This document shows positions 13,587 through 28,761 of a stretch of 32,000 nucleotides of DNA, one piece after another. The DNA lies in contig NC_013849.1 in NCBI RefSeq assembly GCF_000025505.1, forward strand, positions 1,500,001-1,532,000, read 5' to 3'. Position 1 is the first letter of the stretch. The number at the start of each line of letters is the position of its first letter. The stretch comes from Ferroglobus placidus DSM 10642 (GTDB lineage Archaea; Halobacteriota; Archaeoglobi; Archaeoglobales; Archaeoglobaceae). The notes under the pieces were generated by a model. It was not told where the DNA came from. It worked only from the letters and a program-made list of their open reading frames with translations, and did no database searches. Made by a program: the position numbers and the translations under genes.

Positions 13587-13661
13587 ATTACTATTGAGAA
13601 AACTTTCAAACAACTATCCAACAATTGTATTAATATTTGGATGATGTTCAGCTAAATGGAA

Positions 13662-13675
13662 AAAAGTTTAAATAT
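13662..13675 (+). promoter_or_regulatory. BRE/TATA promoter of the mto-type operon
   Basis: AAAAGTTTAAATAT, with TTTAAATA ending 33 nt upstream of ATG 13707. An identical 14-mer occurs at 22787-22800. Confidence 0.55.
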
Positions 13676-14741: not shown

Positions 14742-15437
14742 ATGGTTGACGAAGCTAAAAGAAAGGAAATCTTGGAGAAGTTAAAGAGAGGAGTAGTTGA
14801 ATTCGATGAAGATCTCGTGAGGGAAGCAGCGAAGGAAGCTTTAGAAGTTGGAATGGATGCCCTCGATGCGATTATGAACGGACTCGTTGCGGGAATGGAA
14901 GAAGTTGGGGAGCTATTCGACAAAGGTGAGTACTTCGTTCCGGAAGTGCTGATGTGTGCTGACGCCCTTTATGCTGGACTCGAAATTCTTAGACCTCACG
15001 TGAAGAAGGAAGACATAAAGGTGAAAGGACAGGTCGTCATCGGAGTAGTGGAGGGAGACGTTCACGATATAGGCAAGAACCTCGTGAAGATGATGTTCGA
15101 AGTTGCCGGCTTTGAGGTAATTGATCTTGGAAAGGATGTCCCCCTCGAAAAGTTCGTGGAGGAGTCTTTGAAAAGTGATGCTGACATAGTTGCTTTATCG
15201 GCGATGATGACCACTACGATGCTCGGAATTCCCAAAGTCATTCAGATGATAAGAGAAAAGAATCCGAAAGCAAAGATTCTCGTTGGAGGTGCTCCGATAT
15301 CAAAAGAGACCGCCGAGAAGTGGGGAGCTGACGGGTGGGCTCCCGATGCGACTAATGCAGTGCAGGAAGCTATAAACATGATAAAAGGTTTAAAGAAAGA
15401 AATAATGGGAGAAGAAAAGGGGGAAGAGAAGAATTGA
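14742..15437 (+). CDS. mtoC: Corrinoid (B12-binding) protein, MtaC/MtoC type
   Basis: N-terminal helical cap, then the B12-binding domain with DxHxxG (GDVHDIGKNLV), LSAMMTTTM and VGGAP. GAGGTGA RBS lies in the 9-nt spacer after mtoB. Confidence 0.85.
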   Translation: MVDEAKRKEILEKLKRGVVEFDEDLVREAAKEALEVGMDALDAIMNGLVAGMEEVGELFDKGEYFVPEVLMCADALYAGLEILRPHVKKEDIKVKGQVVIGVVEGDVHDIGKNLVKMMFEVAGFEVIDLGKDVPLEKFVEESLKSDADIVALSAMMTTTMLGIPKVIQMIREKNPKAKILVGGAPISKETAEKWGADGWAPDATNAVQEAINMIKGLKKEIMGEEKGEEKN

Positions 15438-15455
15438 TCCTCTTCGGTGATTTTT

Positions 15456-17348
15456 ATGGAAAAGTGTAAAATTATTTTTCAGCCTGAAGGTAAAAGAGGT
15501 GAGTTTCCCCCGGGAACAACTATTCTGGACGCTGCAAGGGAGATTGGTGTGGATATAGAAGCGATTTGTGGTGGAAAGCTTACTTGCGGGAAGTGCCAAG
15601 TCGTTATTGAGCAGGGTGAGGAAAACCTCTCCCAGATGACGGAAGATGAGAGGAGACTGCTTGACAAAAGAAAAGCCGGGAAAAACTATAGACTTGCTTG
15701 CGTAACAAGATTTTACGGAGACGTGGTTGTTTTCGTTCCGGAAGAGAGTAGAGGTGGAGAGCAGATAATTCTCAAAGAGGGTGTTGAAGTTTCGGTAACA
15801 ATAGACCCTGCTGTGAAAAAGTATTACCTTGAGCTTCCGAAGCCACATTTAAAAGATGATCTCGGAGATTTTGAAAGAATTTTAAACGCTTTAAGAGAGG
15901 ATTACGGAATAGAAAACGTCGATATAGATTACGAGGTTTTAAAAAAGCTTCCGGATGTTTTGAGGGAAAGCGATTGGAAAGTAACCGTTACAATCTGGAA
16001 CGATAGAGAAATAATTGACGTCGAACCCGGATATAAGGCTGAGAACGTTTACGGTTTAGCTGTTGACATCGGAACCACAACTGTGGTTGGCTATCTAACG
16101 GATTTGAGAACCGGTAAAATCCTTGCTATAGATTCAATGATGAATCCTCAGGTGCCCTACGGAGAAGATGTGATGAGCAGAATAACGTATGCGATGCAAA
16201 ATCCAGAGGGTCTGGAAGTTTTGAACAAAAAGATAGTGGAGGGAATAAATCAGATTCTTGTGAACGTTTGCAAAGAAGCGGGAATTAAGCCTGAAGAAGT
16301 TAGCGAAGTGACTATAGTTGGAAACACAGCCATGCACCACATTTTTCTGAAGATAGATCCGCAGTATCTTGCTGTAGCTCCATACGTCCCGGCAATTCAC
16401 CGATCTCACGATGTTAAAGCGAGGGACATTGGAATTAAGATTGCAAAAGGTGGAAACGTCCACGTTTTACCAATAGAGGCTGGATGGGTTGGTGCAGACA
16501 ACGTGGCTGTTCTGATAGCTACAGAGCCTTACAAAAGAGATGAAATGTGCTTGGTTATAGACATCGGGACGAATGGAGAAATTGTTCTGGGGAACAGAGA
16601 GAGACTGCTTTCCTGCTCAGCCGCAGCAGGACCGGCTTTAGAGGGTGCTCATATAAAACACGGAATGAGAGCAGCGACTGGAGCTATAGAGCGAATCAGA
16701 ATAGATCCAGAAACTTTCGAGCCGGAATACAAAACGATAGGCAACGCCCCTCCACGAGGAATATGCGGCTCTGGGATAATCGATGCGGCTGCCGAACTTT
16801 ACAGGGTTGGTATAGTTAAGAAGAACGGAAGGTTCAATCTCGATCTCGATACGCCGAGAGTTAGAGTTGTTGATGGACAGCCGGAGTACGTTATAGCTTG
16901 GGCAAATGAAACGGCTATAGGACACGATATAGTGATTACCCAGAAAGACATAAGAGAGATCCAGCTTGCGAAAGGAGCTATGTGTGCCGGAGCCCACATA
17001 CTCATGAAGGAAATGGGAGTTGAGAGTGTTGACAGAGTAATTGTTGCCGGAGCCTTCGGAAACTACATCGACAAGATTTCAGCTTTAATAATAGGTTTGG
17101 TTCCCGATGTGCCTGTGGATAGGATAGAGTCGGTAGGAAACGCTGCTGGAGTTGGAGCGAGACTCGCTTTGATAAGCAGAGAGAAGAGAAGAGAAGCTAA
17201 CGAGATCGCGAGGAAAGTTGAGCATATCAAGCTGGCTGTACATCCGGATTTCGAAAGGGAATTCTCGATGGCGATGTACTTCCCTCACATGGATAAGAAG
17301 AGGTATCCGAGGCATGAAGAGGTTTTGAAGGTGAGAGGTGCTGAGTAA
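15456..17348 (+). CDS. mtoD: Reductive activase of corrinoid enzymes (2Fe-2S ferredoxin domain + ASKHA/DUF4445 ATPase; RACE/MtoD type)
   Basis: N-terminal AICGGKLTCGKCQV...LACVT ferredoxin motif. The C-terminal part has DIGTTTV and DIGTNGE actin-fold phosphate loops. An alternative GTG start lies at 15447. Confidence 0.8.
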   Translation: MEKCKIIFQPEGKRGEFPPGTTILDAAREIGVDIEAICGGKLTCGKCQVVIEQGEENLSQMTEDERRLLDKRKAGKNYRLACVTRFYGDVVVFVPEESRGGEQIILKEGVEVSVTIDPAVKKYYLELPKPHLKDDLGDFERILNALREDYGIENVDIDYEVLKKLPDVLRESDWKVTVTIWNDREIIDVEPGYKAENVYGLAVDIGTTTVVGYLTDLRTGKILAIDSMMNPQVPYGEDVMSRITYAMQNPEGLEVLNKKIVEGINQILVNVCKEAGIKPEEVSEVTIVGNTAMHHIFLKIDPQYLAVAPYVPAIHRSHDVKARDIGIKIAKGGNVHVLPIEAGWVGADNVAVLIATEPYKRDEMCLVIDIGTNGEIVLGNRERLLSCSAAAGPALEGAHIKHGMRAATGAIERIRIDPETFEPEYKTIGNAPPRGICGSGIIDAAAELYRVGIVKKNGRFNLDLDTPRVRVVDGQPEYVIAWANETAIGHDIVITQKDIREIQLAKGAMCAGAHILMKEMGVESVDRVIVAGAFGNYIDKISALIIGLVPDVPVDRIESVGNAAGVGARLALISREKRREANEIARKVEHIKLAVHPDFEREFSMAMYFPHMDKKRYPRHEEVLKVRGAE

Positions 17349-18298
17349 TGTTTTGCGTTGAATCGAAAGTAGTTGAGATCGGTGGAATCAAGATTGGGGG
17401 GAAGGGGGAAAATCCGGTAGTCTTAGTGGGAACGATGTTTTACACCGGACACAAGATAGTGGAGAAAAGGAAGGAAGGGAAGTTCGACAGGAAAAAGGCT
17501 GAGGAGCTGATAAACATGCAGGAAACTCTGAGCGAAGAAACCGGGATTCCGTCCATGCTCGATATAGTCGCTCTGTCCGAGGAAGAGTTTAAGAAGTACA
17601 TAGATTTCGTGGCTGAAGTGACGGAAATGCCGTTCATGATAGATGCTTGGAAAATTCCACCAAAGATAGGGGCTGCTAAATACGTGAAGGAAATAGGTCT
17701 GGAGGATAGAGTAGTTTACAACTCCTTATCTCCTTGGAGCGAGGATTTGGAGAAGGAGGTTAACGAACTTAGAGAAATTGGGCTGAAGCACGGTTTGACA
17801 GTTGCATACAACATGAACGATCCGAGTGTTGAGGGGAGGATAAGAATTCTAAAGGAGACGCTCCTCCCAGCTTTGGAAAAAGCCGGATTCGAAAACATTC
17901 TCATTGACACATCCGTTTTGAACACTCCTTCGATAGCTCTTTCTCTCTTAGCCTGTAAAAAGATTAAGGAGGTGTTCGGACATCCGGTTGGTTGCGCCCC
18001 TTCAAACGGCACGGATGTTTGGAAGTATCCGAGGGAAAAGTGGGGCAAACTCGGTTTCGCAGCTGTAGATAGCGCAGCTCATGCGATAACAGCTTTGCTA
18101 TGGAACGACTTCATACTCTACGGAGCGATAGAAAATGCGAAGTGGGTTTTCCCAGCTGTAGCAACAGCCAACTCAATTCTGGCGACCTTCATATACGATG
18201 AAGTTGGCAAACTGCCTGAAGGAGAGCATCCGCTGAACAAACTCTTCCCCGAGTTTGTGGAGCAGCTAGGGGCAGTAAAATGTGGAAATCGATCATAA
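17348..18298 (+). CDS. mtoA: MtrH-family methyl-corrinoid:tetrahydromethanopterin methyltransferase (MtoA type)
   Basis: Near-collinear with recalled MtrH: IGG..GE.P, GTMFYTGHKIVE, AEELIN.Q, YIDFVAEV, YNS, DPSVEG, IDTSV, GHPVG, ILYGAIENA..FPAVA. TAATG overlap with mtoD. Confidence 0.85.
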   Translation: MFCVESKVVEIGGIKIGGKGENPVVLVGTMFYTGHKIVEKRKEGKFDRKKAEELINMQETLSEETGIPSMLDIVALSEEEFKKYIDFVAEVTEMPFMIDAWKIPPKIGAAKYVKEIGLEDRVVYNSLSPWSEDLEKEVNELREIGLKHGLTVAYNMNDPSVEGRIRILKETLLPALEKAGFENILIDTSVLNTPSIALSLLACKKIKEVFGHPVGCAPSNGTDVWKYPREKWGKLGFAAVDSAAHAITALLWNDFILYGAIENAKWVFPAVATANSILATFIYDEVGKLPEGEHPLNKLFPEFVEQLGAVKCGNRS

Positions 18299-19284
18299 TC
18301 TTTCTATTTTTAGCTGTAGCAATCATCATTTCAGGTTGTGCGGAGGAAAAATCCGTAAAGCTCGTTAAGCTTTCCCCTCCAGACATGCTTGAACAGATAA
18401 AAATAGGGAAGATAGACGCTTTTATAGCCTGGGAGCCTTTTCCGAGTAAAGCTGTCAAAAGCGGGCAGAAGATTTTGATGTATTCCGGAGACATATGGAA
18501 AAATCACCCGTGCTGCGTTGTTGCTTACAAGGTTGGAAATGCTGACGAAAAAATGCTTGAAGCTTTGGTCTGGGCTCACGTAAAGGCGACGAGATTCATA
18601 AACGATGAGAAAAATCGGAATAAAGTGGTTATCTACGCTTCCCAATTCACAGGGCTGGATGAAGAGACGGTAAAGATGGCTTTAAAGAATATAAAGTACG
18701 TGGAGTATCCGGATGGGAAGGAGTTCAGGCATTACTACGAGTTTTTGAAGGAGGCAGCAATTCTGAAGAAATCTATCGAAGACTTGGGATACAAAAGCGA
18801 GGAAGAGTTTTTCGAGAAGTTTTTGAGGAAAGACGTTTACGAAAAAGTTGTTACTAAACTTGAGGAAAACCCGAATTACGTTCCGGAAAAAGCTGGAAAA
18901 ATTAGACTCGGATACATAACAGCCGATCTACACCATCTCGCCTTGTACGTCGCTTTGAAAGAAGGGTACTTTGACAAAGTTTTTGAGAAAGTTGATTTAA
19001 AGCAGTATCCCAACGGAGTTGCGATAATGGAAGCTTTTAAACTCGGAGAGCTTGATGCAGCTTATCTTGGTGGTGCTCCTGCAACTTTGAAGAGGATAAA
19101 CGATGGAATAGAAATTTCAATAGTTGCCGGAGTTAACAACGAAGGCTCTGCTTTAGTTGTGAGAGAGGGAATAAACTCGCCAAAGGATTTAGCTGGGAAA
19201 ACTGTAGCGATTCCGGGATTTGGAACTGTCCAAGACTTCCTAATGAGAAAAGTCCTAAGGGAGGGAGGGTTGAAGGGAAGTTGA
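18280..19284 (+). CDS. ABC transporter substrate-binding lipoprotein, NMT1/SsuA (nitrate/sulfonate/bicarbonate) family, circularly permuted
   Basis: Signal peptide plus lipobox-like IIISGC. aa 207-334 (IRLGY...DLAGKTVAIPGFGTVQDFLMRKVLREGGL) match the SsuA N-terminal half. aa 25-85 (VKLSPPDMLEQIKIGKIDAFIAWEPF...HPCCVV) match the SsuA C-terminal half. The start overlaps mtoA by 19 nt. Confidence 0.75.
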   Translation: MWKSIIIFLFLAVAIIISGCAEEKSVKLVKLSPPDMLEQIKIGKIDAFIAWEPFPSKAVKSGQKILMYSGDIWKNHPCCVVAYKVGNADEKMLEALVWAHVKATRFINDEKNRNKVVIYASQFTGLDEETVKMALKNIKYVEYPDGKEFRHYYEFLKEAAILKKSIEDLGYKSEEEFFEKFLRKDVYEKVVTKLEENPNYVPEKAGKIRLGYITADLHHLALYVALKEGYFDKVFEKVDLKQYPNGVAIMEAFKLGELDAAYLGGAPATLKRINDGIEISIVAGVNNEGSALVVREGINSPKDLAGKTVAIPGFGTVQDFLMRKVLREGGLKGS

Positions 19285-20042
19285 ACCAGAAAATTTATTC
19301 CGCTCTCCTCTTCATCTCTCTCTGGTACCTCTTATATTTTCTGAACGTTCTTCCAGCCTTTCACGTAGTTGTCGTAACTTTTTTAGAGCTTGTTGTTGAA
19401 GCGGAGCCTGTTCTTGGAAAGACTCTCCTTCAGCATGCAGCTTCGAGCCTATTAAGAGTTTTAGCTGGAGCAACAGTAGCTTTTTCCCTCTCAATCCCCC
19501 TCGGAATTTTGATGTGGTTTTCGAGGACATACAATCTCTTACATCCAGCTATAGAGGTTCTAAGACCAATTCCCCCTCTTGCATGGATCCCCCTCTCTTA
19601 CATTCTCTTCGCCTCATTCCCCAACCCAACGGTTTTCGCTCAAATTTTTATCGTAGCTGTCGGAGCTTTCTTTCCAAGCTTCGTAACGATTTCCGATTAC
19701 GTCAGAGGGATTCCTCAGGAGTTCATCGAATTGGCGAAAGTTTTTGGTGCGAGAAACTTTGATTTGTTAACGAAAATAGTTCTTCCTTATTCCCTCCCCG
19801 GGATAATCACCGGTATTAGGGTTGGACTCGGGGTTGGATGGATGAGCATAATCGCTGCCGAGATGATTGCTTCCTCAGGCTCTGGTTTAGGATATTTCAT
19901 TCTCGTCATGTACGAAGTCGGAGGGAGAATGCCGGAAATACTTGCTGGAATGGCTATGATCGGTCTTATAGGATATTTGATGAATACTCTTCTTTTTAAA
20001 CTGGAGGAAAGATTTCCATGGCGCTTGAAATCAGAAACGTGA
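19281..20042 (+). CDS. ABC transporter permease (SsuC/TauC-type, BPD_transp_1)
   Basis: Six predicted TM segments. EAA-loop-like ELAKVFGARNFDLLTKIVLPYSLPGIITGIRVGLGVGW. TTGA start/stop overlap with the binding-protein gene. Confidence 0.85.
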   Translation: MNQKIYSALLFISLWYLLYFLNVLPAFHVVVVTFLELVVEAEPVLGKTLLQHAASSLLRVLAGATVAFSLSIPLGILMWFSRTYNLLHPAIEVLRPIPPLAWIPLSYILFASFPNPTVFAQIFIVAVGAFFPSFVTISDYVRGIPQEFIELAKVFGARNFDLLTKIVLPYSLPGIITGIRVGLGVGWMSIIAAEMIASSGSGLGYFILVMYEVGGRMPEILAGMAMIGLIGYLMNTLLFKLEERFPWRLKSET

Positions 20043-20761
20043 AGAAGAGTTTTGGAGATTTAAAAGTTCTCGACGGAGTGAGCTTTGAAGTAGAGAAAGG
20101 CGAGTTCGCTTGTATTGTAGGGGAGTCCGGATGCGGAAAAACAACTCTGCTTAAGATAGTGGCTGGACTTGTTAAAGCAGATGAGGGAGAAGTTTTATAC
20201 GATGGGAGAGAGCTGAAAACGGAAGACATAGCTTTCGTTTTTCAGGACGATCGTCTTTTGCCTTGGAGAACCGCCTTAGAAAACGTGATGTTTTCCTTGG
20301 AGATGAGAATGCGAGAGCTGGATAAGAAGCGGAGGGAAGAGATAGCAAAGAGTTTCCTTGAACTCGTGGGATTGAAAGGATTCGAAAACTACTACCCCCA
20401 CCAGCTCAGCGGAGGAATGAGGCAGCGAGTCGGAATTTGTCGAGCTTTAGCGGTAAATCCTAAAGTGCTGCTCATGGATGAACCCTTTGCAAGTCTCGAC
20501 GCTCAGACGAGGAACAGGATGCAACTCGAACTTCTGAGGATTTGGGAAAGGGAAAGAAAAACTATTCTTTTCGTAACCCACAGCGTTGACGAGGCTGTTT
20601 TCTTGGCAGATAAAGTCGTCGTTCTTTCTCCACGCCCGACAAAAGTCCTGAAAGTTTTGGAAATTAATCTGGAGAGACCGAGGGACAGGACTTCTCCAGA
20701 GTTCATAGGATACAGAAGAGAAATTATAAACTTTCTTCAGGGGTCTTCTTTCTTAATTTGA
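20018..20761 (+). CDS. ABC transporter ATP-binding protein (SsuB/TauB-type)
   Basis: Walker A GESGCGKTT, Q-loop FQDDRLLPW, signature LSGGMRQRV, Walker B LLMDEPFASLD and H-loop FVTHS. GGAGG RBS at 20003-20007. Confidence 0.92.
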   Translation: MALEIRNVKKSFGDLKVLDGVSFEVEKGEFACIVGESGCGKTTLLKIVAGLVKADEGEVLYDGRELKTEDIAFVFQDDRLLPWRTALENVMFSLEMRMRELDKKRREEIAKSFLELVGLKGFENYYPHQLSGGMRQRVGICRALAVNPKVLLMDEPFASLDAQTRNRMQLELLRIWERERKTILFVTHSVDEAVFLADKVVVLSPRPTKVLKVLEINLERPRDRTSPEFIGYRREIINFLQGSSFLI

Positions 20762-21246
20762 ACAACGTTATACTTACCCTTAAGCTCGTAAAGAGTGAGC
20801 AAATAAAGAAGGCAGCTGAGCTTGTTTAACCACTCCACAAGATTTATCCCAACTTTTCCTTCGTCGTTCAACCTTACAGCCCATCTCTCAGCTCTTCTTA
20901 CAACGGCTCTCGCAACGCTTAAATAAGCTGTAATTTCGTCCTGCTCTAAAATTATAAACTTGTCAGGTTGCTCGACTTTCCTACCAACCTCTCTTATAAT
21001 CTCTTCAAGCTCCTCAACGTCCTTTCTCGTGATCATTTCTTTCCCAGAGATCATCTCCGCTCCTACGTTGAACATCTTTCTCTGAACTTTTTCAAGAATT
21101 TCTCTCGTTAAACCTTCCGACTTTACCTTTGCTAAACCTATGAAAGCGTTAGCCTCATCCACACTACCGACTCCCCAGATTTCATCGCTGTCCTTGGAAA
21201 TTAGCCCACTTCTCAGACTGGAAGTCAGTCTTACATCTTTTTTCAT
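20737..21246 (-). CDS. PduO-type ATP:cob(I)alamin adenosyltransferase-like protein (COG2096) with a degenerate N-terminal ATP motif
   Basis: GVGSVDEANAFIGLA (compare EAYGxxDELNxxIG), QRKMFNVGAE and ARAVVRRAERW resemble the PduO/MMAB helical bundle. GGAGG sits 5 nt before ATG 21246. The ORF track permits 21291. 25-nt convergent overlap with the ATPase gene. Confidence 0.55.
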   Translation of the reverse strand: MKKDVRLTSSLRSGLISKDSDEIWGVGSVDEANAFIGLAKVKSEGLTREILEKVQRKMFNVGAEMISGKEMITRKDVEELEEIIREVGRKVEQPDKFIILEQDEITAYLSVARAVVRRAERWAVRLNDEGKVGINLVEWLNKLSCLLYLLTLYELKGKYNVVQIKKEDP

Positions 21247-21376
21247 CTCAGCCTCCCTCTTTTTAATCAAGCACGCCATTAAATTATTCAAGTTTTCTTG
21301 ATTTTAATAAACTTTCTTGGTTGTGAGGTGAAGATTGAATCGGGTGACGTTTCGTCACATTTCCCTCAGTTTTTAC

Positions 21377-21919
21377 TTAATCTTCCTCGCACCAATTTTT
21401 GAGCTTTTCGAAATCTTTCTGATAGTCAACGTTACCTTCTTCGAGCATATTTCTCAGCCAAGGACTTGTGTAAATCTTGTACGTTTTCCCAAATTTCTCT
21501 CTGACGATCAAGTTTTTCTCTTCAAGTTTCTTGATTATCATCGAGATCTTGGATTGGGAAAAACCAGTCTTGAAGTGGAGGGAATCCTGGGTTATTCCTT
21601 CATTTTCGAGAACGAGTTTTATTATCTTGAACTCATCTTCCTCAAGCAAATTTCTGATTAAATCGAGTATTTTTCCGTTCTGATTCTTCTCAGCTAATTT
21701 ACTTCCCGATTCGACAATTTCACTCTTTTCCTCACTTAAAACAACAGCTAAAACTAAAATAATAACCGCTGCAAAGAAAAAGTAGCTGTTAAACCCGTAA
21801 AAGGCTCCGAAGCACGTGTTTGGATACGGATTCGCCACGATGGGGTTGAAAAAGGAGACAAGTAAAAGGACTATTCCAAGCAAGAGCAAGAGATTTTTTA
21901 AAGTTGCGAGCTTAGACAT
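21377..21919 (-). CDS. Membrane-anchored winged-helix (MarR/ArsR-like) transcriptional regulator
   Basis: Two N-terminal hydrophobic helices (LLLLLGIVLLLVSFF, YFFFAAVIILVLAVVL). They are followed by EDEFKIIKLVLENEGITQDSLHFKTGFSQSKISMIIKKLEEKNLIVREKFGKTYKIY, a wHTH pattern. Confidence 0.6.
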   Translation of the reverse strand: MSKLATLKNLLLLLGIVLLLVSFFNPIVANPYPNTCFGAFYGFNSYFFFAAVIILVLAVVLSEEKSEIVESGSKLAEKNQNGKILDLIRNLLEEDEFKIIKLVLENEGITQDSLHFKTGFSQSKISMIIKKLEEKNLIVREKFGKTYKIYTSPWLRNMLEEGNVDYQKDFEKLKNWCEED

Positions 21920-22024: not shown

Positions 22025-22330
22025 ATGAAAGTTATCATTACCGACCAACCGTGCGGCTATAAAAGTGAGGTAATAGCGAAAAAAATCGATAAAAGCGTGA
22101 AAATTGAGATAATTTCCGAATGCGAGGACGTTCGTAAATTTGGAGAAGAACTGCCGATTTTAAGTGCAAAAGACGTTCTTACAAGAATTCCAGAAAATAT
22201 CGTTTACAAAAAAGCTAATTTAAAGCACTCCACCTGCATAATTCCCTGGGTCGTTTTAAAAGCTGCGGAAATTGAGCTTGGACTCAACGTTAAAAGGTTG
22301 CCAAGAATAAAGTTTGAGGACGACTTTTGA
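22025..22330 (+). CDS. Small hypothetical Cys-containing protein
   Basis: 101 codons from ATG 22025, which lies about 27 nt after the TATA-like acaattatat (21993-22002). The ORF track allows TTG 21974. No family recognised. Confidence 0.4.
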   Translation: MKVIITDQPCGYKSEVIAKKIDKSVKIEIISECEDVRKFGEELPILSAKDVLTRIPENIVYKKANLKHSTCIIPWVVLKAAEIELGLNVKRLPRIKFEDDF

Positions 22331-22449: not shown

Positions 22450-22668
22450 ATGACAGTTATCGACCTTAGAGGCTTAACGTGCCCCGAGCCAATAATTAAG
22501 CTCAGACAAGAAATGAGCAAATTCAAACCGGGAGATGTAGTAGAAGTTCTAACCACAGACCCAGGAACGATGATCGACATTCCGATATGGGCAGGAAATT
22601 CTGGTATTGTGGTTTTAGAGTGTAGGAGAGAAGGAGACCACATCAAATTCGTTTTAAAGAAAATTTAA
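22450..22668 (+). CDS. TusA/SirA-family sulfur-carrier protein
   Basis: 72 aa with DLRGLTCPEPIIKLRQ (the family CPxP motif) and the two-layer alpha/beta length typical of TusA. Confidence 0.85.
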   Translation: MTVIDLRGLTCPEPIIKLRQEMSKFKPGDVVEVLTTDPGTMIDIPIWAGNSGIVVLECRREGDHIKFVLKKI

Positions 22669-22786: not shown

Positions 22787-22800
22787 AAAAGTTTAAATAT
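22787..22800 (+). promoter_or_regulatory. BRE/TATA promoter of the CMD / methyltransferase-2 unit
   Basis: AAAAGTTTAAATAT, identical to 13662-13675. Followed by the GGAGGTGA RBS (22830-22837) and ATG 22842. Confidence 0.5.
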
Positions 22801-22841
22801 AGTTATTAAAAATTATAATTGTTTATTGTGGAGGTGAGAGT

Positions 22842-23261
22842 ATGGGAAACAAGGAGTGTGAAGAATACGTCAAAGAAAGAATGAAACTGATGCCAAGATT
22901 TTTGAAGACCGTCTGTGAGGTTTGGCCGGAAGCTGCTAAAAAGTTTGCAGATTTCTATGAGGTAATCTGGAGGGATGGGGCTTTAGATAGAAAGACCAAG
23001 GAGTTAATTTTCACTGCCATAGGAGTAGCGACTGCCTCTCCAAGATGTATTGTTCATGTAATTGCCGCTGTTGAAGCTGGTGCTACTGATGAGGAAATTC
23101 TCGAAGCCGTCACTGTAGGATTCATCGGAGCTGGCTTCTATCCAAACAATCCGGGAATTCCGTACGCTTTCGAATACGCTGTAAAAGCGATTGAAGTTGC
23201 TCAGAAGTATAGAAGAGGAGAAGATTGGGAATACTTAAAACCGCCGGAGTTCAGAGGATAA
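22842..23261 (+). CDS. Carboxymuconolactone decarboxylase (CMD/AhpD-like) family protein
   Basis: KTKELIFTAIGVATASPRCIVHVIAAVEAGATDEEILEAV matches the CMD helix pair. The usual CxxC position reads SPRC. Confidence 0.7.
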   Translation: MGNKECEEYVKERMKLMPRFLKTVCEVWPEAAKKFADFYEVIWRDGALDRKTKELIFTAIGVATASPRCIVHVIAAVEAGATDEEILEAVTVGFIGAGFYPNNPGIPYAFEYAVKAIEVAQKYRRGEDWEYLKPPEFRG

Positions 23262-23311
23262 CTTTCTATTTTTTCAGTTTTACAATTTTTGTGTTGCTTT
23301 GGGGTGAAAAA

Positions 23312-24343
23312 ATGCGTCCGAAAGACATTCTCCTTGAAGCTTTTGAATTAGGAGTTCCGGAAAGAGTTCCTGCGGTAATTTTTGGAGGAGGTATGTGGAC
23401 GATTAAAAATTCTGGCAAGGATTTCCTTTACTATATTGGCAAGCCGAAGGAGTATGCGGAGCTTATAGTTAAAACAGCAGACATTCTGCAGTCGGACATG
23501 GTTTACCCTGGCTCGGGATACAACAACTTTCTGGCTGCTGCGATAGGTGGAAAGATTAAGGTTAGGCACATAGGTGCTCCCGATTTGGAGGGACCAATTA
23601 TAAACTCTCCGGAGGACCTTGAAGCTTTGGAAATTGACAAAATTTATGAAAACGAAGCTCTTCAAACTATTTGGAAAGCTTCCGAGATTGTTTACAACGA
23701 GATTGGGGATAAATATTTAGTCGGGACGACTTCCTGGGGTCCTTTCACGAAAGCCGGAAATTTGAGAGGTGTAGAGCAGCTCATGAGGGACATCTACAAG
23801 AACAAGGAATTTGCTAAAAAAGTGATAGAGTTCGCCAAAGACCTCATAATGGCTTTTTACGAGCCAGTAGTTAAGGATGCGGGGTTAGAGGCTGTGAGCA
23901 TAGCAGACCCGACGGCAAGTGGAGATTTGATATCGAGGAGGCACTTTTTAGAGTTCGCATTACCACCTTTAAAGGAACTGATAGACGAGATGAAAAAGCG
24001 TAAAATAGCTGTGTTTTTACACATTTGCGGAGATACGAGCGATAAGTTGAGGGAGATAGCGGAAAGCAAAGCCAGCTGCTTCAGCTTGGATCACAAAGTA
24101 GATCTCGGTTATGCCAAGAGCACGCTTAAGAGTGTTATATGTATAGCCGGCAACGTCGATCCAGTTTCGGTTTTAAACGACGGCACTCCAGAATATGTAG
24201 AGGAAGTGTCAAATAAGTGCATTCACATTGCTGCTGAAGGTGGCGGCTACGTCCTATGCCCGGGATGTGATATCCCTCCAACAGTTCCCCTTGAAAACAT
24301 TCAGGCTTTTATAAGAGCTGCAAGAAAAACCAAGCTCAGATAA
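23312..24343 (+). CDS. UroD/MtaA-family methyltransferase, paralogue 2 (no adjacent corrinoid protein)
   Basis: FLHICGDTSD, AGNVDP and LCPGCDIPP are the same Zn and fold motifs as 13707..14732. ATG 23312 is preceded by GGGGTGA. The ORF track start at 23225 would add a hydrophobic, non-homologous extension. Confidence 0.8.
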   Translation: MRPKDILLEAFELGVPERVPAVIFGGGMWTIKNSGKDFLYYIGKPKEYAELIVKTADILQSDMVYPGSGYNNFLAAAIGGKIKVRHIGAPDLEGPIINSPEDLEALEIDKIYENEALQTIWKASEIVYNEIGDKYLVGTTSWGPFTKAGNLRGVEQLMRDIYKNKEFAKKVIEFAKDLIMAFYEPVVKDAGLEAVSIADPTASGDLISRRHFLEFALPPLKELIDEMKKRKIAVFLHICGDTSDKLREIAESKASCFSLDHKVDLGYAKSTLKSVICIAGNVDPVSVLNDGTPEYVEEVSNKCIHIAAEGGGYVLCPGCDIPPTVPLENIQAFIRAARKTKLR

Positions 24344-24409
24344 CTATTTTTTATTTTTCATTTGATTACAAGCCAACTTTTATAAACGAGTTGTTAACTA
24401 TAATTAATT

Positions 24410-24943
24410 ATGAGCGAAATAAACGGCGTTGATGTGGAATATTTAAAGCAGTTAGTGGAGACTGTGAAGAAGCATCCGGAGCTCGGCAGAACTCTCTGGA
24501 GAGCAAGATCTAAATGGAAAGACGGTTTCAAAGTTGAAGTGAACATAAGGGACTTCACAATCAGAATGGATGAACCAAAAGATCTCGGAGGCACCAATAC
24601 AGCTCCAAACATGGTGGAATTCGTATTAGGAGCTTTAGGAGCTTGCCTTGTTGTTGGTTATGTTATGAACGCAGCGATTAGAGGAATAGAGCTCGATAAA
24701 GTTGAAATAGATGTAGAGGGAGACATCGACCTTCCCGGCTTTTTTGGCTTGGAGTCTCCGGAAAAGGTCTCTCCGGGATTTACAAACATCAGAGCAAGGG
24801 TATTCCTTAAAACGAAAAAACCCGTAAGTAAAGAGGAGCTTAAAGAGCTTCACGAAACAGTTGTGAAAACCTCACCTGTCGGAAACACGCTGATGAAGCC
24901 TGTTAATCTGGAAGTAAAATTGGAGGAAAGGAGAACTGTTTAA
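24410..24943 (+). CDS. OsmC/Ohr-family protein (single-Cys variant)
   Basis: GGTNTAPNMVEFVLGALGACLVVG is the OsmC core. The second conserved Cys (CP) position reads TSPV. TATA TTTTATAAA (24378-24386) ends 24 nt before the ATG. Confidence 0.8.
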   Translation: MSEINGVDVEYLKQLVETVKKHPELGRTLWRARSKWKDGFKVEVNIRDFTIRMDEPKDLGGTNTAPNMVEFVLGALGACLVVGYVMNAAIRGIELDKVEIDVEGDIDLPGFFGLESPEKVSPGFTNIRARVFLKTKKPVSKEELKELHETVVKTSPVGNTLMKPVNLEVKLEERRTV

Positions 24944-25311
24944 CCTACACAAATGACTTTGTCTGCTTCGAGAGCGAGATAAATGAACGTGGCAGCCCCG
25001 GCAACCTCAGCTTCATCGATTATGTCCTCTTCTTTTATTTTTCTCACTACAAGCGTTTGAGAGCAAACATAGATTTTCACTCCTGCTTCAATCGCCTCGT
25101 TCAATCTCTGCCTTATTGTAGGTACTCCCGGCTTTACCTCTTCTTTATCCAAAGCTCCCTTGACCATTATCTCCACTCCATCCTGAAAGCAGAAAACTGT
25201 CGTTTTTATCCCGAGATTGGCACTTAGGGCTGCGAGCATTAGCGTAGTTCTCGCTATATCCGGGTAATTCAAGCCCTTACTCAGAACGAAAACAAGCTTT
25301 TTCTCCGCCAT
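24940..25311 (-). CDS. DsrE/DsrF-like family protein (COG2044-like)
   Basis: About 123 aa alpha/beta protein. KLVFVLSKG, VFCFQDGV and IYVCSQTL resemble DsrE-type proteins. The ATG at 25311 fits the TATA (minus strand, 25331-25339) better than TTG 25326. Confidence 0.6.
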   Translation of the reverse strand: MAEKKLVFVLSKGLNYPDIARTTLMLAALSANLGIKTTVFCFQDGVEIMVKGALDKEEVKPGVPTIRQRLNEAIEAGVKIYVCSQTLVVRKIKEEDIIDEAEVAGAATFIYLALEADKVICVG

Positions 25312-25449
25312 GGGGTAAAATTTCAAAGGAATTTTATAGCTTTTACTTCCGCTCCAAGTCTAATCGAGACAATAACTTCAAACTTCTACCAAAAGTCGTG
25401 GAAAATCTACAGCAAAATTATAATTGCTAAAAATCAGAGATCTTTGGAT

Positions 25450-26517
25450 TTACGCATAAGAGTCGCCAGTAGCTCTAACGCTGATCTTTTTAACAGTTTC
25501 GACCATCACCCTAACGTTTCTGTTCGGGGTTAGCGGAGAAAGAGAACAGCCAGGAGCGATTATATCTATTCCCGCCTCTATCGCTCGAAGCGTCTCAGCT
25601 TCAACATCTTCAGGTTTTCCGAAGGGAAGAGTGTATATCGTGTCGATGTTACCCATTATCGCCGCCTTTCCTCTTGAAATCTCCACCGCAAACCTTGCGT
25701 CAGTCTTCGAATCTATGCTCAAGCAAGTCGCTTTCGTCTCTACCATGTCTTCGATTATGCTCGTGCAATCTCCGCAGATGTGGAGTATGGTTATTCCCTT
25801 GATCTTCCTTATCAGCTTTCTATCGAAAGGCTTTGCAAACTTCGCATAGTTTTTCGCTCCTATTACATCTGCGGAAGCGAACATGTTCTCGATGACTATC
25901 GCATCAGCTCCCCTATCTCTCATAGCTTTCGCATACTCTGCTATCGCATCAAGCCCCATTTCGGTGAATTCTTCAACAAGCTTGGGTTTTTTTATGGACA
26001 TCTTCAGAATCTTTTCTATGTTCGCTATGTGAGCAGCTAAGGAAAACGGACCTATAACGTGCCCCAATACTGGAAGAAAGTCTCCGTACTTCTCAGCTAA
26101 AATTTCGATCGCATCGAGAACTATCGGTATTCTTCCCCTCTCCAAGAAGTTTTCGGGAACCTCTATTCCCTCCGGAGCAACGCAACCTTTAAAAGAAACA
26201 ACCGGAATGCTGCTCTTCTTTTTTCCCCAGTTCACTTCCAAACCAAACGCTTCAGCTTCCACAGTTTGGCAAAACGGTACACCAACCCCCTCCAATCCGA
26301 GTTCTTCCCAAGCAGCAGAAGCTAATGTTGCAAGCTTTTCAGGGTTTGAATAGGCATCTTTGTAAAATATTCCAAGTTTCTCCATCTGCTCTATCGTGGC
26401 TGTTTGGTTAGCAGACAAAACCGGAGGACGGTCTACCTTTTTCAATTTAACTGCTTTTAAAAACCTTTCCTTTGGCGTTAACTCATTCGCAGAAAAGCTT
26501 TTTGAGATCCTCTTCAT
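25450..26517 (-). CDS. UroD/MtaA-family methyltransferase, paralogue 3 (no adjacent corrinoid protein)
   Basis: LTPKERFLKA N-terminus like paralogue 1. ILHICGDCT, MGNIDT and IAPGCSLSP. The start overlaps the Lrp gene stop by 35 nt. Confidence 0.8.
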   Translation of the reverse strand: MKRISKSFSANELTPKERFLKAVKLKKVDRPPVLSANQTATIEQMEKLGIFYKDAYSNPEKLATLASAAWEELGLEGVGVPFCQTVEAEAFGLEVNWGKKKSSIPVVSFKGCVAPEGIEVPENFLERGRIPIVLDAIEILAEKYGDFLPVLGHVIGPFSLAAHIANIEKILKMSIKKPKLVEEFTEMGLDAIAEYAKAMRDRGADAIVIENMFASADVIGAKNYAKFAKPFDRKLIRKIKGITILHICGDCTSIIEDMVETKATCLSIDSKTDARFAVEISRGKAAIMGNIDTIYTLPFGKPEDVEAETLRAIEAGIDIIAPGCSLSPLTPNRNVRVMVETVKKISVRATGDSYA

Positions 26518-26989
26518 TGTAATTCACCAGCAACCTTTTCTCTTCCTTAATTATCGAAGCTACGAAGTGCGTTCCTGTCTTTACAACTCCGTCGATGGCA
26601 TGTATCTCTCTGAGAATTCTTTTGAGATCTTCTCTGTCCTTTGCCCTCGCTATAACAATGAAATCGAAATCTCCGAGGATGTAGTAGACTGCAAAAACTC
26701 CTGAAATCGACGCAAGCTTCTGTCCGATTTCCTCCGGCGTTGTGTTGTTATAACTCACGCTTACGAACGTTACGGTGGTTATATCGAGTCCAAGGGCTTC
26801 CGGATTTAGCTCTATCAACGTACCTTTTATAAGTCCCATTTTTTTAAATTTCTTCAGTCTGTAGTGGACGGTGGAGCGGGAAATGTTCGTAATTTTCGAT
26901 ATTTCGTCGAGATTGTAGCTTCCGTTTTCCTCCAAGCACTTCAGGATCTTCAGGTCCTTTTCCTCAAGTTTTACCACCATCTCTACCAC
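26483..26989 (-). CDS. Lrp/AsnC-family transcriptional regulator
   Basis: KILKCLEENGSYNLDEISKITNISRSTVHYRLKKFKKMGLIKG (HTH), followed by a RAM/ACT-like domain (FVSV...GVFAVYYILGDFDFIVIARAKD). GTG start at 26989, alternative ATG at 26980. Confidence 0.88.
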   Translation of the reverse strand: MVEMVVKLEEKDLKILKCLEENGSYNLDEISKITNISRSTVHYRLKKFKKMGLIKGTLIELNPEALGLDITTVTFVSVSYNNTTPEEIGQKLASISGVFAVYYILGDFDFIVIARAKDREDLKRILREIHAIDGVVKTGTHFVASIIKEEKRLLVNYNEEDLKKLFCE

Positions 26990-27120: not shown

Positions 27121-28761
27121 TCAGCTTGGCGACTTCTCATCATTTTCAGCAGCGGGAGTAATCATCATCGGGGAAATGTAAGGTAGCAGAATTTTGAACT
27201 TCTCTTCTCCTATTAAATCTTTCAGCTCCTTCAAACTCCTGAACGGCTTAGCAGAGATTATCTTAGCTGCCGTAGTTTTTCCGATTCCCGGAATGCTTTC
27301 GAGCTGGTAAAGTTTCGCTTTATTTACGTCCAGAATTGGAATCGCCGTTACCGACCTCATTCCGTAATCGACAACTCTCGCATCGACGAAAGCGTTCCTT
27401 TCAAACTCTCCAACCAATCCGACTAAGAGGGGGTAAGTCGCAAGTTGTCTTGCGAAAGTTATTCTTCCTTTTCTTACCTCGCACCTCAAATCTCTTATCA
27501 GCCTGCCTTTCGGAACTATTTTTTGCAACATCCTGTTGTCTATGTTGTTCCTAACTCTCTCCTTGAAAATTTTGAAGTACTTTTTGTGTCTCCTCACGTT
27601 CTTGTAACCGACTTCAGCCATTGGCGTGTTTGGGAAAACCTTCACCTGCCTGATGTTTATCCTCCTGAGAAGCAAACCTCTTCGCATAACCTCTTCGAGA
27701 AACTCGTAGTTCTTCTCGAAGGTCTCCTTCGTCTCACCCTTCAAACCTATGACGAAGTTTATTCCCGGTAGAAAGTATGGTAAGCCGTTGTATCCGACGA
27801 ATCTTCCGTATCTGTTCATAAGCTCTATCGCAAACAGAACTTCGTCTGGCGTTGCCAGAAGATCGTTCCTCTCAATGACTTTTTCGTCAGCACTCTCCAA
27901 ACCGAAAGCAGCCACGTTTCCGGGAGTTTGGTAGCATACAATCGTCTTTATTATCTCTTTGCTCTCCTCAGGATAAGCTGCAATGGTTTTCGGATTAACG
28001 TTGTCCAGATGGAGGGTTTTAATCTTCGGGCATCTCCTCCAGATCTCTCTGTGGAAGTTTTTCAAAGCTTCCGGATTCGGTTTCGGAATATCCTTGGAGA
28101 AGTCGCCGAGGTAAGTGAAAAAGTCAGTTTGGTTTCCGAGTCTAAAATAGCGAACCCCTTGATTGTATAGAGTTTCTATTTCTTTTATAACCCACCTTGG
28201 CTCTCTCATCGAAATTCTGTGAATCCTCTCTATGCAAAAGCTGCACCTTCCCCAGTAACATCCCTTGTAAGTTTCTATCTCGCAGATAACGTTCGGATAA
28301 TCGCTGTGCTGCTTAACCACTTCTGCTCCGAGAACCGCAAATTTATTAACGAAGTTCCTGCTCGAATCCTTAACTTCTCCACCGAGCCTCTCATACAAAG
28401 CGTGCTCAAAAGGGAAGGGGAGAACCTCGTATCTTTCAAATATTTCTTTATCGAGATCCTCAAGAACTATAGGTCCGACGAGGATCTTCTCCTTTTCTGG
28501 AAGTAAGTGTTTTAGCTCTTTAGCCGAAAGCGGTTTTCCGCCAAGATATTTTCCCGGAACGGCAATTCCGGCTATAACGATCACGAGCTTCGCTTTATCG
28601 AACACGGAGGGGTTTTTTCGGAACTCGTCTATCGTTATGTATCTGTAGCTGTGCCCCAGATCTCTGAGCATTCCAGCTACGTATCTCGGATAGGGAGAAA
28701 TGTAAGGGGGAACTCCGAGGCAGGAAGGTTCGTCGACGTAGCCGTCGAGAATTCCTATCAT
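27121..28761 (-). CDS. Radical SAM protein with an N-terminal Rossmann/B12-binding-like domain and a C-terminal helix-hairpin-helix
   Basis: N-terminal LDGYVDEPSCLGVPPYISPYPRYVAG. Cluster motif ETYKGCYWGRCSFCIE (Cx4Cx2C). C-terminal LESIPGIGKTTAAKII (HhH). 546 aa. Confidence 0.8.
   Translation of the reverse strand: MIGILDGYVDEPSCLGVPPYISPYPRYVAGMLRDLGHSYRYITIDEFRKNPSVFDKAKLVIVIAGIAVPGKYLGGKPLSAKELKHLLPEKEKILVGPIVLEDLDKEIFERYEVLPFPFEHALYERLGGEVKDSSRNFVNKFAVLGAEVVKQHSDYPNVICEIETYKGCYWGRCSFCIERIHRISMREPRWVIKEIETLYNQGVRYFRLGNQTDFFTYLGDFSKDIPKPNPEALKNFHREIWRRCPKIKTLHLDNVNPKTIAAYPEESKEIIKTIVCYQTPGNVAAFGLESADEKVIERNDLLATPDEVLFAIELMNRYGRFVGYNGLPYFLPGINFVIGLKGETKETFEKNYEFLEEVMRRGLLLRRINIRQVKVFPNTPMAEVGYKNVRRHKKYFKIFKERVRNNIDNRMLQKIVPKGRLIRDLRCEVRKGRITFARQLATYPLLVGLVGEFERNAFVDARVVDYGMRSVTAIPILDVNKAKLYQLESIPGIGKTTAAKIISAKPFRSLKELKDLIGEEKFKILLPYISPMMITPAAENDEKSPS

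Follow-up and report, generated by a model that had tools for sequence, protein, structure and literature searches.

Among the described corrinoid methyl-transfer systems, the mlp gene clusters of Kountz and Balskus are the closest to the locus reported here, a gene island on a 32,000-nt stretch of the genome of the archaeon Ferroglobus placidus DSM 10642 (contig NC_013849.1, positions 1,500,001 to 1,532,000; hereafter the window). Type 1 mlp clusters are composed of the MtaA-like proteins Mlp1-3, a corrinoid protein, and an activase of the Ram/RACE type, the criterion being that at least Mlp2 and Mlp3 occur with the corrinoid protein and Ram/RACE in one cluster (bioRxiv 2023, PMC10418091). 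Mlp2 is sister to the remaining Mlp proteins, and the clusters display His-Cys-Cys sites and sulfur- or selenium-related neighbours (PMC10418091). In vitro, ClMlp2 transfers methyl groups from methylcobalamin to selenide and, more weakly, to sulfide; selenium salvage was proposed for most type 1 clusters, with the M. voltae sdm genes for dimethylselenide and ClMlp2 as precedents, and the authors stress that these clusters have no tetrahydrofolate (H4folate) methyltransferase (PMC10418091). A second point of comparison is the Mto system of Methermicoccus shengliensis and Archaeoglobus fulgidus. Its MtoB1 and MtoB2 proteins, two paralogues in M. shengliensis, are 47-48 kDa MtvB-related proteins that are handled apart from the MtaA/CmuA family (Kurth et al., PMC8630106), the A. 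fulgidus cluster is organized as MtoC-MtoB-MFS-MtoA-MtoD, with MFS for a major facilitator superfamily transporter (PMC8359953), and the closest relative of MtoB, CdmB, is zinc-free (PMC13222342).

The window carries three genes for URO-D-fold methyltransferases, here called UROD1, UROD2 and UROD3. UROD1 opens a core operon that continues with genes for a corrinoid protein, a RACo/RACE-type activase, an MtrH-like protein and an ATP-binding cassette (ABC) importer; UROD2 and UROD3 lie further downstream, and neither is adjoined by a corrinoid-protein gene, the sole one in the window being that of the core operon, as an earlier sequence-only reading of this DNA had noted. We propose, with a probability of about 55%, that UROD2 and UROD3 are integral to one conserved multi-enzyme corrinoid methyl-transfer system, of the methyl-S/Se:tetrahydromethanopterin (H4MPT) type, whose substrate and direction are unproven. 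The MtrH link to the one-carbon (C1) pterin pool sets this island apart from the mlp clusters.

The conservation of the island was scrutinized by mapping the window genes with six-frame open reading frames (ORFs) and Pfam/NCBIfam scans, and by a pattern-limited scan, based on an alignment of UROD2 orthologues and on one genome per species, which yielded 347 species-level UROD2 relatives. Eighty loci were fetched and their ORFs searched with the window proteins; many of these loci are short, and the presence of core genes was counted in the 32 bacterial loci whose downstream flank extends over 7 kb or more. A gene for a CMD/AhpD-fold protein, the direct neighbour of UROD2 in Ferroglobus, is found within 400 bp of UROD2 in 61 of the 80 loci. 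The well-flanked bacterial loci encode RACo in 30 cases, CMD in 29, UROD1 in 28, the corrinoid protein (Corr) and the MtrH-like protein in 27 each, and the DUF6951 protein in 26. A collinear arrangement, UROD2-CMD-MtrH-UROD1-Corr-(4Fe-4S protein)-RACo-DUF6951, recurs in Nitrospirota/Thermodesulfovibrionia, Anaerolineae/Chloroflexota, Bacillota and Desulfobacterota, and in one Nitrospirota locus (L044) it is followed by FolD. The cultured Metallumcola ferriviriculae displays Corr-RACo-UROD2-CMD-MtrH-UROD1, followed by an ABC transporter of the same type and by genes for CoA-disulfide-reductase-like, NarI-like, HdrD-like (CCG) and CobW proteins. Carriers include the Archaeoglobaceae, Hydrothermarchaeota, Thermodesulfovibrionia, Anaerolineae, Bacillota and Desulfobacterota, many of them from hydrothermal or deep-subsurface samples.

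In the archaea, both halves of the island can be contiguous. Two Geoglobus loci (L005 and L008) are organized as DUF6951-TusA-CMD-UROD2-OsmC-DsrE(-)-UROD3(-)-Lrp(-)-UROD1-Corr-RACo-MtrH-SBP, the last being the substrate-binding protein gene, and in another archaeal locus (L087) the whole island comprises an operon UROD1-Corr-RACo-MtrH-TusA-UROD2, a divergent Lrp-UROD3-CMD-DsbA-like unit and two DsrE genes. The Lrp-UROD3 pair is kept in nine loci (L003, L005, L007, L008, L011, L012, L015, L087 and L088), and DsrE follows UROD3 in L003, L005, L007 and L008. Judged by these gene orders, the universal core would consist of seven components (UROD1, UROD2, CMD, the corrinoid carrier, RACo, the MtrH-like pterin methyltransferase and DUF6951), to which UROD3, Lrp and DsrE appear as an archaeal add-on. 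In Ferroglobus the island is broken up into two units, each with its own promoter, that lie some 8 kb from one another. The name of orphans, given earlier to UROD2 and UROD3, therefore describes a local artefact, because both genes belong to a conserved cluster in relatives: UROD2 keeps its CMD partner, and UROD1, the corrinoid protein, RACo and MtrH accompany it in 27-30 of the 32 loci. The accompanying proposal that the additional paralogues are tied to a single corrinoid protein/RACo/MtrH core is borne out by synteny across Archaeoglobaceae, Hydrothermarchaeota, Nitrospirota, Chloroflexota and Bacillota.

All three URO-D genes and their LHICGD, GN(I/V)D and PGC motifs are located where the sequence-only reading had placed them. 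The motifs read VLHICGDT, FGNIDP and WPGCD in UROD1, FLHICGDT, AGNVDP and CPGCD in UROD2, and ILHICGDC, MGNIDT and APGCS in UROD3, and the Pfam URO-D model spans each of the proteins end to end. Its assignment of the additional paralogues to the corrinoid-type methyltransferases also holds, and the clustering with true uroporphyrinogen decarboxylases (HemE) that it had named as a refutation is not seen. HemE is excluded for all three by the hemE equivalog model TIGR01464 (78.4, 71.3 and 67.4 bits for UROD1, UROD2 and UROD3, with a cut-off of 302.95) and by active-site residues: the tobacco enzyme 1J93 has Y/S/H where all three clades have H/C/C. Both MtaA/CmuA family models, TIGR01463 (cut-off 235.4) and NF004889 (cut-off 244), are passed by UROD1 (249.6 and 272.5 bits) and by UROD3 (310.9 and 353.1); UROD2 scores below both (184.5 and 167.9) and forms a separate, if related, clade. 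None of the three reaches the MtaA and MtbA equivalog cut-offs (NF040654, 400; NF041608, 600), the best being UROD3 with 316 and 265 bits. The best solved match of all three is the methylcobalamin:coenzyme M (CoM) methyltransferase MtaA of M. mazei (4AY7), with 238 bits over the full length for UROD3, 150 bits for UROD1, and 78 bits over the C-terminal two thirds only for UROD2. A weak match of UROD3 to a methionine-synthase model (E=2e-4) led us to consider a methionine-synthase-like role, which was rejected on the weakness of this match and on the report of a MesC-type methionine synthase in Ferroglobus (PMC7857596).

UROD1 and UROD3 are 35% identical over their full length, while UROD1/UROD2 (32%) and UROD2/UROD3 (30%) can be compared over the C-terminal ~245 residues only. 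The strong N-terminal divergence that had been claimed for all three is found in UROD2, whose first ~100 residues are 16-18% identical to the others, and not in UROD1 and UROD3, which are 28-42% identical to each other and to MtaA in this part. UROD3 is about 39% identical to Methanolobus MtbA and to URO-D+B12 fusion proteins. The phylogeny that had been suggested as a check was carried out on a reduced set of references as a neighbour-joining tree (53 sequences, 334 columns, 100 bootstraps, HemE as outgroup). This set consisted of MtaA (4AY7, its sequence reconstructed out of a HMMER alignment), the named MtbA P0232, fusion proteins and HemE. The tree displays three old separate clades with bootstraps of 100% (UROD2), 99% (UROD1) and 93-95% (UROD3): UROD3 falls inside the group of MtaA, MtbA and URO-D+B12 fusions, UROD1 is sister to that group (87%), and UROD2 is basal. 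The picture of interchangeable MT1 modules does not agree with these ancient clades, nor with the fixed pairing of UROD1 and UROD2 in 28 of the 32 loci.

UROD2 relatives comprise 197 representative clusters in the protein library at E<=1e-30, and a 'Ferroglobus sp.' metagenome-assembled genome holds a 97% identical copy. Members of the clusters of ten remote relatives are named only 'uroporphyrinogen decarboxylase', with no characterised name among them, and the relative in Eubacterium (P0310, 29% identical) has an unrelated gene context. Remote relatives also include a tandem URO-D-URO-D fusion (P0313, 683 aa) and proteins of 566-585 aa (P0308 and P0178) in which URO-D is fused to a B12-binding domain, the corrinoid domain being N-terminal or C-terminal. 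Close orthologues of UROD3, taken as those with 50% identity or more, occur solely in the Archaeoglobaceae, Pyrohabitans/Hydrothermarchaeota and their allies.

The predicted zinc ligands H237, C239 and C319 (UROD2 numbering) are invariant in all 11 sequences of the UROD1 clade, all 12 of the UROD2 clade and all 29 of the MtaA/MtbA/UROD3 group. The carboxylate of the fourth ligand (D260 in UROD2) is Asp or Glu in all sequences but one, and within the UROD2 clade H237, C239, D260 and C319 are all invariant. In the UroD superfamily, a His-Cys-Cys zinc site marks S/Se-methyltransferases (PMC10418091); with His-Cys-Cys plus Asp/Glu, all three enzymes are predicted to be zinc methyltransferases of the S/Se type.

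The genes around UROD2 and UROD3 point in the same direction, and some of them were overlooked or left unremarked by the sequence-only reading: TusA and DUF6951 upstream of the CMD gene, and OsmC and DsrE between UROD2 and UROD3, all of which are informative. Conservation is higher in the CMD partner than in UROD2, and SPRC..HV, GIPYAFEYA and GE.WEYL are invariant in 64 CMD sequences. The sole cysteine of CMD aligns with the second cysteine of the CPGC motif of AhpD (5DIK), and the protein is therefore a one-cysteine variant. The OsmC-like protein retains the first cysteine (GAC) and has SPV where relatives have CPV; it recurs beside the cluster in Archaeoglobaceae, Pyrohabitans and Nitrospirota. 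The carrier cysteines of TusA (CP.P) and DsrE (C.QT) are conserved, as is the pattern CG...C...H..C..P of DUF6951. TusA, DsrE and OsmC are recurrent in archaeal, Nitrospirota and Chloroflexota loci, and HdrD-like CCG genes are found in L011, L082 and L086. The His-Cys-Cys site together with these sulfur-carrier and thiol neighbours argues for soft-atom (S/Se) substrates and thiol or persulfide handling, not for aryl methyl ethers; the 'other methoxyaromatics' envisaged earlier as substrates are thus disfavoured. The best NCBIfam matches of the ABC importer are SsuA_fam, TauC/SaoP and SaoA/TauB, all below cut-off, and the same transporter type is part of the cluster in Metallumcola, Anaerolineae and L086. 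A selenocysteine-assisted organometallic (SAO) system was considered for this transporter and excluded, SaoA, SaoP and SaoX scoring 258, 136 and 59 bits with cut-offs of 360, 295 and 300; the Pfam/NCBIfam scans detected no MerB-like (SaoL) gene in the window.

Compared with the mlp clusters, the island shares two or three MtaA-like URO-D paralogues of distinct ancient clades with one corrinoid protein and a bacterial-type RACE, an invariant His-Cys-Cys site, one basal divergent paralogue (Mlp2 there, UROD2 here), sulfur- or selenium-related neighbours, and a distribution restricted to anaerobes. This likeness is one of composition and tree shape alone, the labels of the published Mlp tree being anonymised. 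A cluster of the plain URO-D/Corr/URO-D/RACE type (L085) houses a relative of UROD2 with 36% identity. The Ferroglobus-type island differs by its MtrH-like gene, also found in 27 of the 32 bacterial loci and often joined by FolD, which conflicts with the lack of a pterin methyltransferase in mlp clusters, and by a fixed SPRC-type CMD protein and DUF6951, neither of which is mentioned in the preprint. The species table and trees of that preprint contain no Ferroglobus, Archaeoglobus, Geoglobus or Thermodesulfovibrio (PMC10418091). With Mto the island has in common an MT1, a corrinoid protein, a 2Fe-2S RACE, a non-Mtr MtrH-like enzyme directed to H4MPT, and occurrence in the Archaeoglobaceae; it differs in its URO-D enzymes (~340-355 aa, MtaA-like with His-Cys-Cys, versus the ~47 kDa MtvB-type O-demethylase MtoB) and in gene order, B-C-D-A-ABC as against C-B-MFS-A-D. 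The core operon seems to follow an Mto-like logic with a URO-D enzyme of the thiol-methyltransferase type. The CoM methyltransferases and methylthiol systems of methanogens (MtaA, MtbA, MtsA/MtsB, MtpA/MtpC and the fused MtsD/F/H) resemble it in family and zinc chemistry, and MtsA and MtpA show that the URO-D methyltransferase family can take methyl groups from thioethers; they differ in that Ferroglobus is a non-methanogen and that its methyl acceptor or donor at the far end is a pterin, reached through MtrH, in the place of CoM/Mcr.

In the mechanism that we favour, the zinc of each URO-D enzyme would coordinate a methyl-S/Se compound through its sulfur (or selenium) atom, and the Co(I) corrinoid protein, kept reduced by RACo, would receive the methyl group from the enzyme. 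The MtrH-like enzyme would move the methyl group on to H4MPT, or to H4folate in the bacterial versions, where FolD is adjacent, after which it could be oxidised or assimilated via the Wood-Ljungdahl pathway's methyl branch. The C1 link is suggested by the MtrH-family model NF002142, passed by the Ferroglobus protein with 454 bits (cut-off 287), and by the FolD gene after the L044 cluster; the mtrH equivalog TIGR01114 is failed (226 bits, cut-off 271). The fixed pair of UROD1 and UROD2 may reflect the use of different methyl-S donors, or else a dimethyl compound that is demethylated twice in succession. The one-cysteine CMD, OsmC, TusA and DsrE, with the HdrD-like and CoA-disulfide-reductase-like proteins of relatives, would handle the thiol, sulfide or persulfide product, and the NitT/TauT-family ABC system would import a polar substrate.

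The promoter regions carry possible traces of common control. The sequence-only reading was right about the 14-nt element of the archaeal TFB-recognition element (BRE)/TATA type, AAAAGTTTAAATAT, shared by the core operon and the CMD-UROD2 unit; these two exact copies are the only ones in the window. It was right as well about the overlap between Lrp and UROD3. The CMD-UROD2 element is kept as GAGAAAAGCTTAAATAT in Geoglobus and Archaeoglobus sp. loci, and a related BRE/TATA element with a conserved upstream box precedes UROD1 in Geoglobus. A box ATATTTGGAYRATRTWCAGCT...TGGA directly upstream of the UROD1 BRE/TATA (13620-13661), common to Ferroglobus and Geoglobus (L005 and L008), is a phylogenetic footprint, probably of a regulator site. 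A 13-nt box, AAAATTATAATTG, with the palindromic core AATTATAATT, is present exactly twice in the window, where 0.06 occurrences would be expected. The first copy separates TATA from the CMD start, and the second lies between UROD3 and DsrE; the first is kept as ATTAAAAATTAYAA in Geoglobus and Archaeoglobus sp. loci. The two boxes could represent an operator common to both sites, perhaps one for the Lrp encoded nearby; this agrees with common control and proves nothing. The T-runs after CMD and after UROD2 could be archaeal terminators, and read-through from the CMD promoter into UROD2 is therefore an assumption. The UROD2 start at 23312 is preceded by a GGGGTGA ribosome-binding site, and the public gene call agrees with it.

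Several points weigh against the proposed demethylating system. We found no experimental study of any member of the cluster family in the literature, nor anything specific on this cluster in Ferroglobus, Hydrothermarchaeota or Thermodesulfovibrionia, or on anaerobic methanethiol or dimethyl sulfide (DMS) methyltransferases outside methanogens. The His-Cys-Cys rule rests on few characterised enzymes and a preprint, and volatile methanethiol or DMS would need no ABC importer. For Ferroglobus, no growth on methylated sulfur compounds is known. TusA was detected in only 18 of the 80 loci, many of which are short, and TusA, OsmC and DsrE all occur in a minority only; they could alternatively protect or repair the oxygen-sensitive Co(I) and zinc-thiolate enzymes. 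The standard free energy of the Mtr reaction is about -30 kJ/mol; methyl transfer from a thioether to H4MPT is hence uphill by about 30 kJ/mol, so that the system may run in the opposite direction or need product removal. An improbable elaboration would answer this last point by a protein-mediated methyl-sulfur relay, in which CMD (SPRC), OsmC, TusA and DsrE are carrier thiols and not peroxidases, and what the zinc methyltransferases really consume or release are mixed (per)sulfides of these carriers. One such species, Cys-S-S-CH3, would arise from dimethyl di- or polysulfides or from methanethiol, and demethylation into H4MPT or H4folate would be coupled to persulfide trafficking and HdrD-type disulfide reduction, which would pull the uphill transfer.

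The energetics also bear on the reverse direction, in which the methyl group of CH3-H4MPT would pass via MtrH and the corrinoid protein to a thiol, sulfide or selenide, making the island a soluble analogue of Mtr. The methylated S/Se compounds so produced would be a means of detoxification or volatilisation, a sink for methyl groups, or a supply for the synthesis of methionine or a cofactor. Such a transfer would be downhill, the physiological methyl acceptor of MtaA-type enzymes is a thiol, the activity assayed for ClMlp2 was that of a methylcobalamin:selenide/sulfide methyltransferase, and UROD3 matches MtaA over its full length and, weakly, the methionine-synthase model. The Lrp-UROD3 pair of L088, a 130-kb metagenome contig (1-5300 and 9507-11008; 60% identical), lies beside a Pyl-type MtmB split at an amber codon, an MtbB-like gene, three corrinoid proteins and a RamA-like activase, as expected of an MT2, and UROD3 may act there as a classical MT2. 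We nevertheless regard this direction as unlikely: the ABC importer, like the dedicated regulators, suggests that the island responds to a substrate from outside, a MesC-type methionine synthase is already present (PMC7857596), and two or three thiol methylases on one carrier would have no obvious purpose. The same nesting of UROD3 with MtaA/MtbA, its company in L088 and its narrow distribution could mean that UROD3, with Lrp, is a remnant of the methylcobamide:CoM methyltransferase of a methanogenic ancestor, functionally unlinked to the island. This is hardly credible given that Lrp-UROD3 adjoins UROD1, UROD2, CMD, DsrE, OsmC or TusA in eight loci (L003, L005, L007, L008, L011, L012, L015 and L087), that the UROD3 sequence is intact with all zinc ligands present, and that the AAAATTATAATTG box is common to the UROD3-DsrE gap and the CMD promoter region.

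An Mto-type O-demethylase island, the identity assumed by the sequence-only reading, would have UROD1-3 as interchangeable MT1s harvesting methoxylated aromatics into one MtoC/MtoD/MtoA core. Ferroglobus degrades aromatics, the architecture of MT1, corrinoid protein, 2Fe-2S RACE and MtrH-like MT2 matches the Mto scheme, M. shengliensis has its two MtoB paralogues, and the shared promoter element suggests co-regulation. The proteins themselves do not comply, and we rate this identity as improbable. At 341, 343 and 355 aa, with two of them passing the MtaA/CmuA model TIGR01463, they contrast with the 47-48 kDa MtvB-related MtoB proteins; at E<=1e-3, CdmB (9RUI) is matched by UROD2 with 28 bits and by UROD1 and UROD3 not at all; and O-demethylases replace one or both cysteines of the zinc site or have no zinc (PMC13222342, PMC10418091). 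The mto clusters of A. fulgidus and M. shengliensis, moreover, carry MFS transporters and not a sulfonate-type ABC system. None of the three fits an MT1 of the MtoB/MtvB/OdmB/CdmB type (O-demethylase or dehalogenase, ~420-430 aa), as judged by protein length, by scores against CdmB in the place of MtoB, and by the retained cysteine ligands. Selenium salvage, by demethylation of (di)methylselenide or methylselenol to recover selenide, could draw on the precedents of M. voltae sdm and ClMlp2 and on the selenium-associated names of the nearest NCBIfam models: GSU3128 (seleno)protein for CMD, OsmC-related (seleno)protein, YedF for TusA and Sao for the ABC system. All of these matches are well under their cut-offs, the window genes need no in-frame TGA, we know of no use of selenocysteine in Archaeoglobaceae, and the links to MtrH and FolD speak for a role of carbon flow and not of the heteroatom alone; this explanation appears quite improbable.

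If the proposed methyl-S/Se:H4MPT system is real, it would constitute a widespread route by which anaerobes other than methanogens connect methylated compounds of sulfur (or selenium) with the Wood-Ljungdahl C1 pool; to our knowledge, no enzymes have been identified through which reducers of sulfate, iron and nitrate consume methanethiol, DMS or other methylthio compounds. It would extend the mlp clusters by the pterin link they reportedly lack, and the SPRC-type CMD protein and DUF6951, two families of unknown function, would acquire roles that can be tested. Should the relay hold, it would supply the missing enzymology for anaerobic methylated-sulfur oxidation by non-methanogens. For annotation, the label 'Mto' or 'methoxydotrophy' should not be passed on to just any cluster of URO-D, corrinoid protein, RACE and MtrH. 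The features of the window are collected in Table 1.

Table 1. Genes and sequence elements of the island and its surroundings in the F. placidus window.
Feature	Position	Strand	Matches and remarks
MutS, five-domain bacterial-type	10621-13083	+	
BRE/TATA-like element AAAAGTTTAAATAT, promoter of the UROD1-corrinoid-RACo-MtrH-ABC operon	13662-13675	+	exact 14-mer; 32 nt upstream of UROD1 start
UROD1, MtaA/CmuA-family zinc methyltransferase (predicted), core operon	13707-14732	+	PF01208 228 bits; 341 aa
Corrinoid (B12-binding) methyl-carrier protein	14742-15437	+	PF02310 and PF02607; TIGR02370 210 bits, cut-off 215
RACo/RACE-type ATP-dependent reductive activase with N-terminal 2Fe-2S domain	15447-17348	+	Fer2, RACo_linker, Raco_middle, RACo_C_ter; AcsV-like 552 bits
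MtrH-like methyl-corrinoid:pterin (H4MPT) methyltransferase, not membrane Mtr complex	17348-18298	+	PF02007 250 bits
NitT/TauT-family ABC importer (NMT1/SsuA-like binding protein, permease, ATPase)	18280-20761	+	Pfam
PduO-type adenosyltransferase	20737-21291	-	
Membrane helix-turn-helix protein	21377-21919	-	
DUF6951 protein	22025-22330	+	PF22263; three conserved Cys and one conserved His
TusA/YedF-like sulfur (selenium) carrier, CPxP Cys	22450-22668	+	PF01206 in public gene call; YedF 45.6 bits, TusA 41.4 bits; 72 aa
BRE/TATA-like element AAAAGTTTAAATAT, second copy, before CMD-UROD2	22787-22800	+	42 nt upstream of CMD start
AAAATTATAATTG box, palindromic core AATTATAATT, candidate operator	22809-22821	+	between TATA and CMD start
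CMD/AhpD-fold UROD2 partner, one-cysteine (SPRC for CxxC)	22842-23261	+	PF02627
UROD2, divergent zinc methyltransferase (predicted)	23312-24343	+	PF01208 207 bits; 343 aa
OsmC-like protein without second (CPV) Cys	24410-24943	+	PF02566
DsrE-like sulfur-carrier protein, downstream of UROD3	24940-25311	-	PF02635; gene call
AAAATTATAATTG box, second copy	25414-25426	+	between UROD3 and DsrE
UROD3, MtaA/CmuA-family, soluble CoM-methyltransferase-like	25450-26517	-	PF01208 254 bits; 355 aa
Lrp/AsnC-family regulator	26483-26989	-	Pfam; 35-nt overlap with UROD3

Cobamide-related genes flank the island: an archaeal CobT-type phosphoribosyltransferase (4085-5161, minus strand; TIGR00303, 382 bits) on one side and the PduO-type corrinoid adenosyltransferase on the other, the gene of the latter being convergent with the ABC ATPase gene and overlapping its 3' end. 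A serine hydroxymethyltransferase, a C1-pterin enzyme, is encoded about 10 kb upstream of the methyltransferase operon (2276-3538, plus strand). Genes for CobW/COG0523-type GTPases are found near clusters in L044 (5935-6795), L082 (20066-20926), L086 (6259-7140) and L088 (14548-16409), and none in the window; as putative zinc or cobalt metallochaperones, their recurrence fits zinc-dependent methyltransferases.

Directly past the Lrp gene, 27121-28761 (minus strand) encodes a radical SAM protein of 546 aa that carries a helix-hairpin-helix domain at its C-terminus and weakly matches B12-binding radical SAM methyltransferase models. Upstream of the island, this archaeon possesses a bacterial-type MutS with all five domains. 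The next ORF, of 174 aa (13062-13586, plus strand), overlaps the MutS gene, has no Pfam/NCBIfam match and is called as a gene in the public contig. An SfsA-family gene (7738-8412, plus strand) lies about 5 kb upstream of the island, and an SfsA-DUF123 fusion about 6 kb upstream of the Nitrospirota cluster (L044, 470-1609); the proximity of SfsA in both Ferroglobus and L044 is probably a coincidence.

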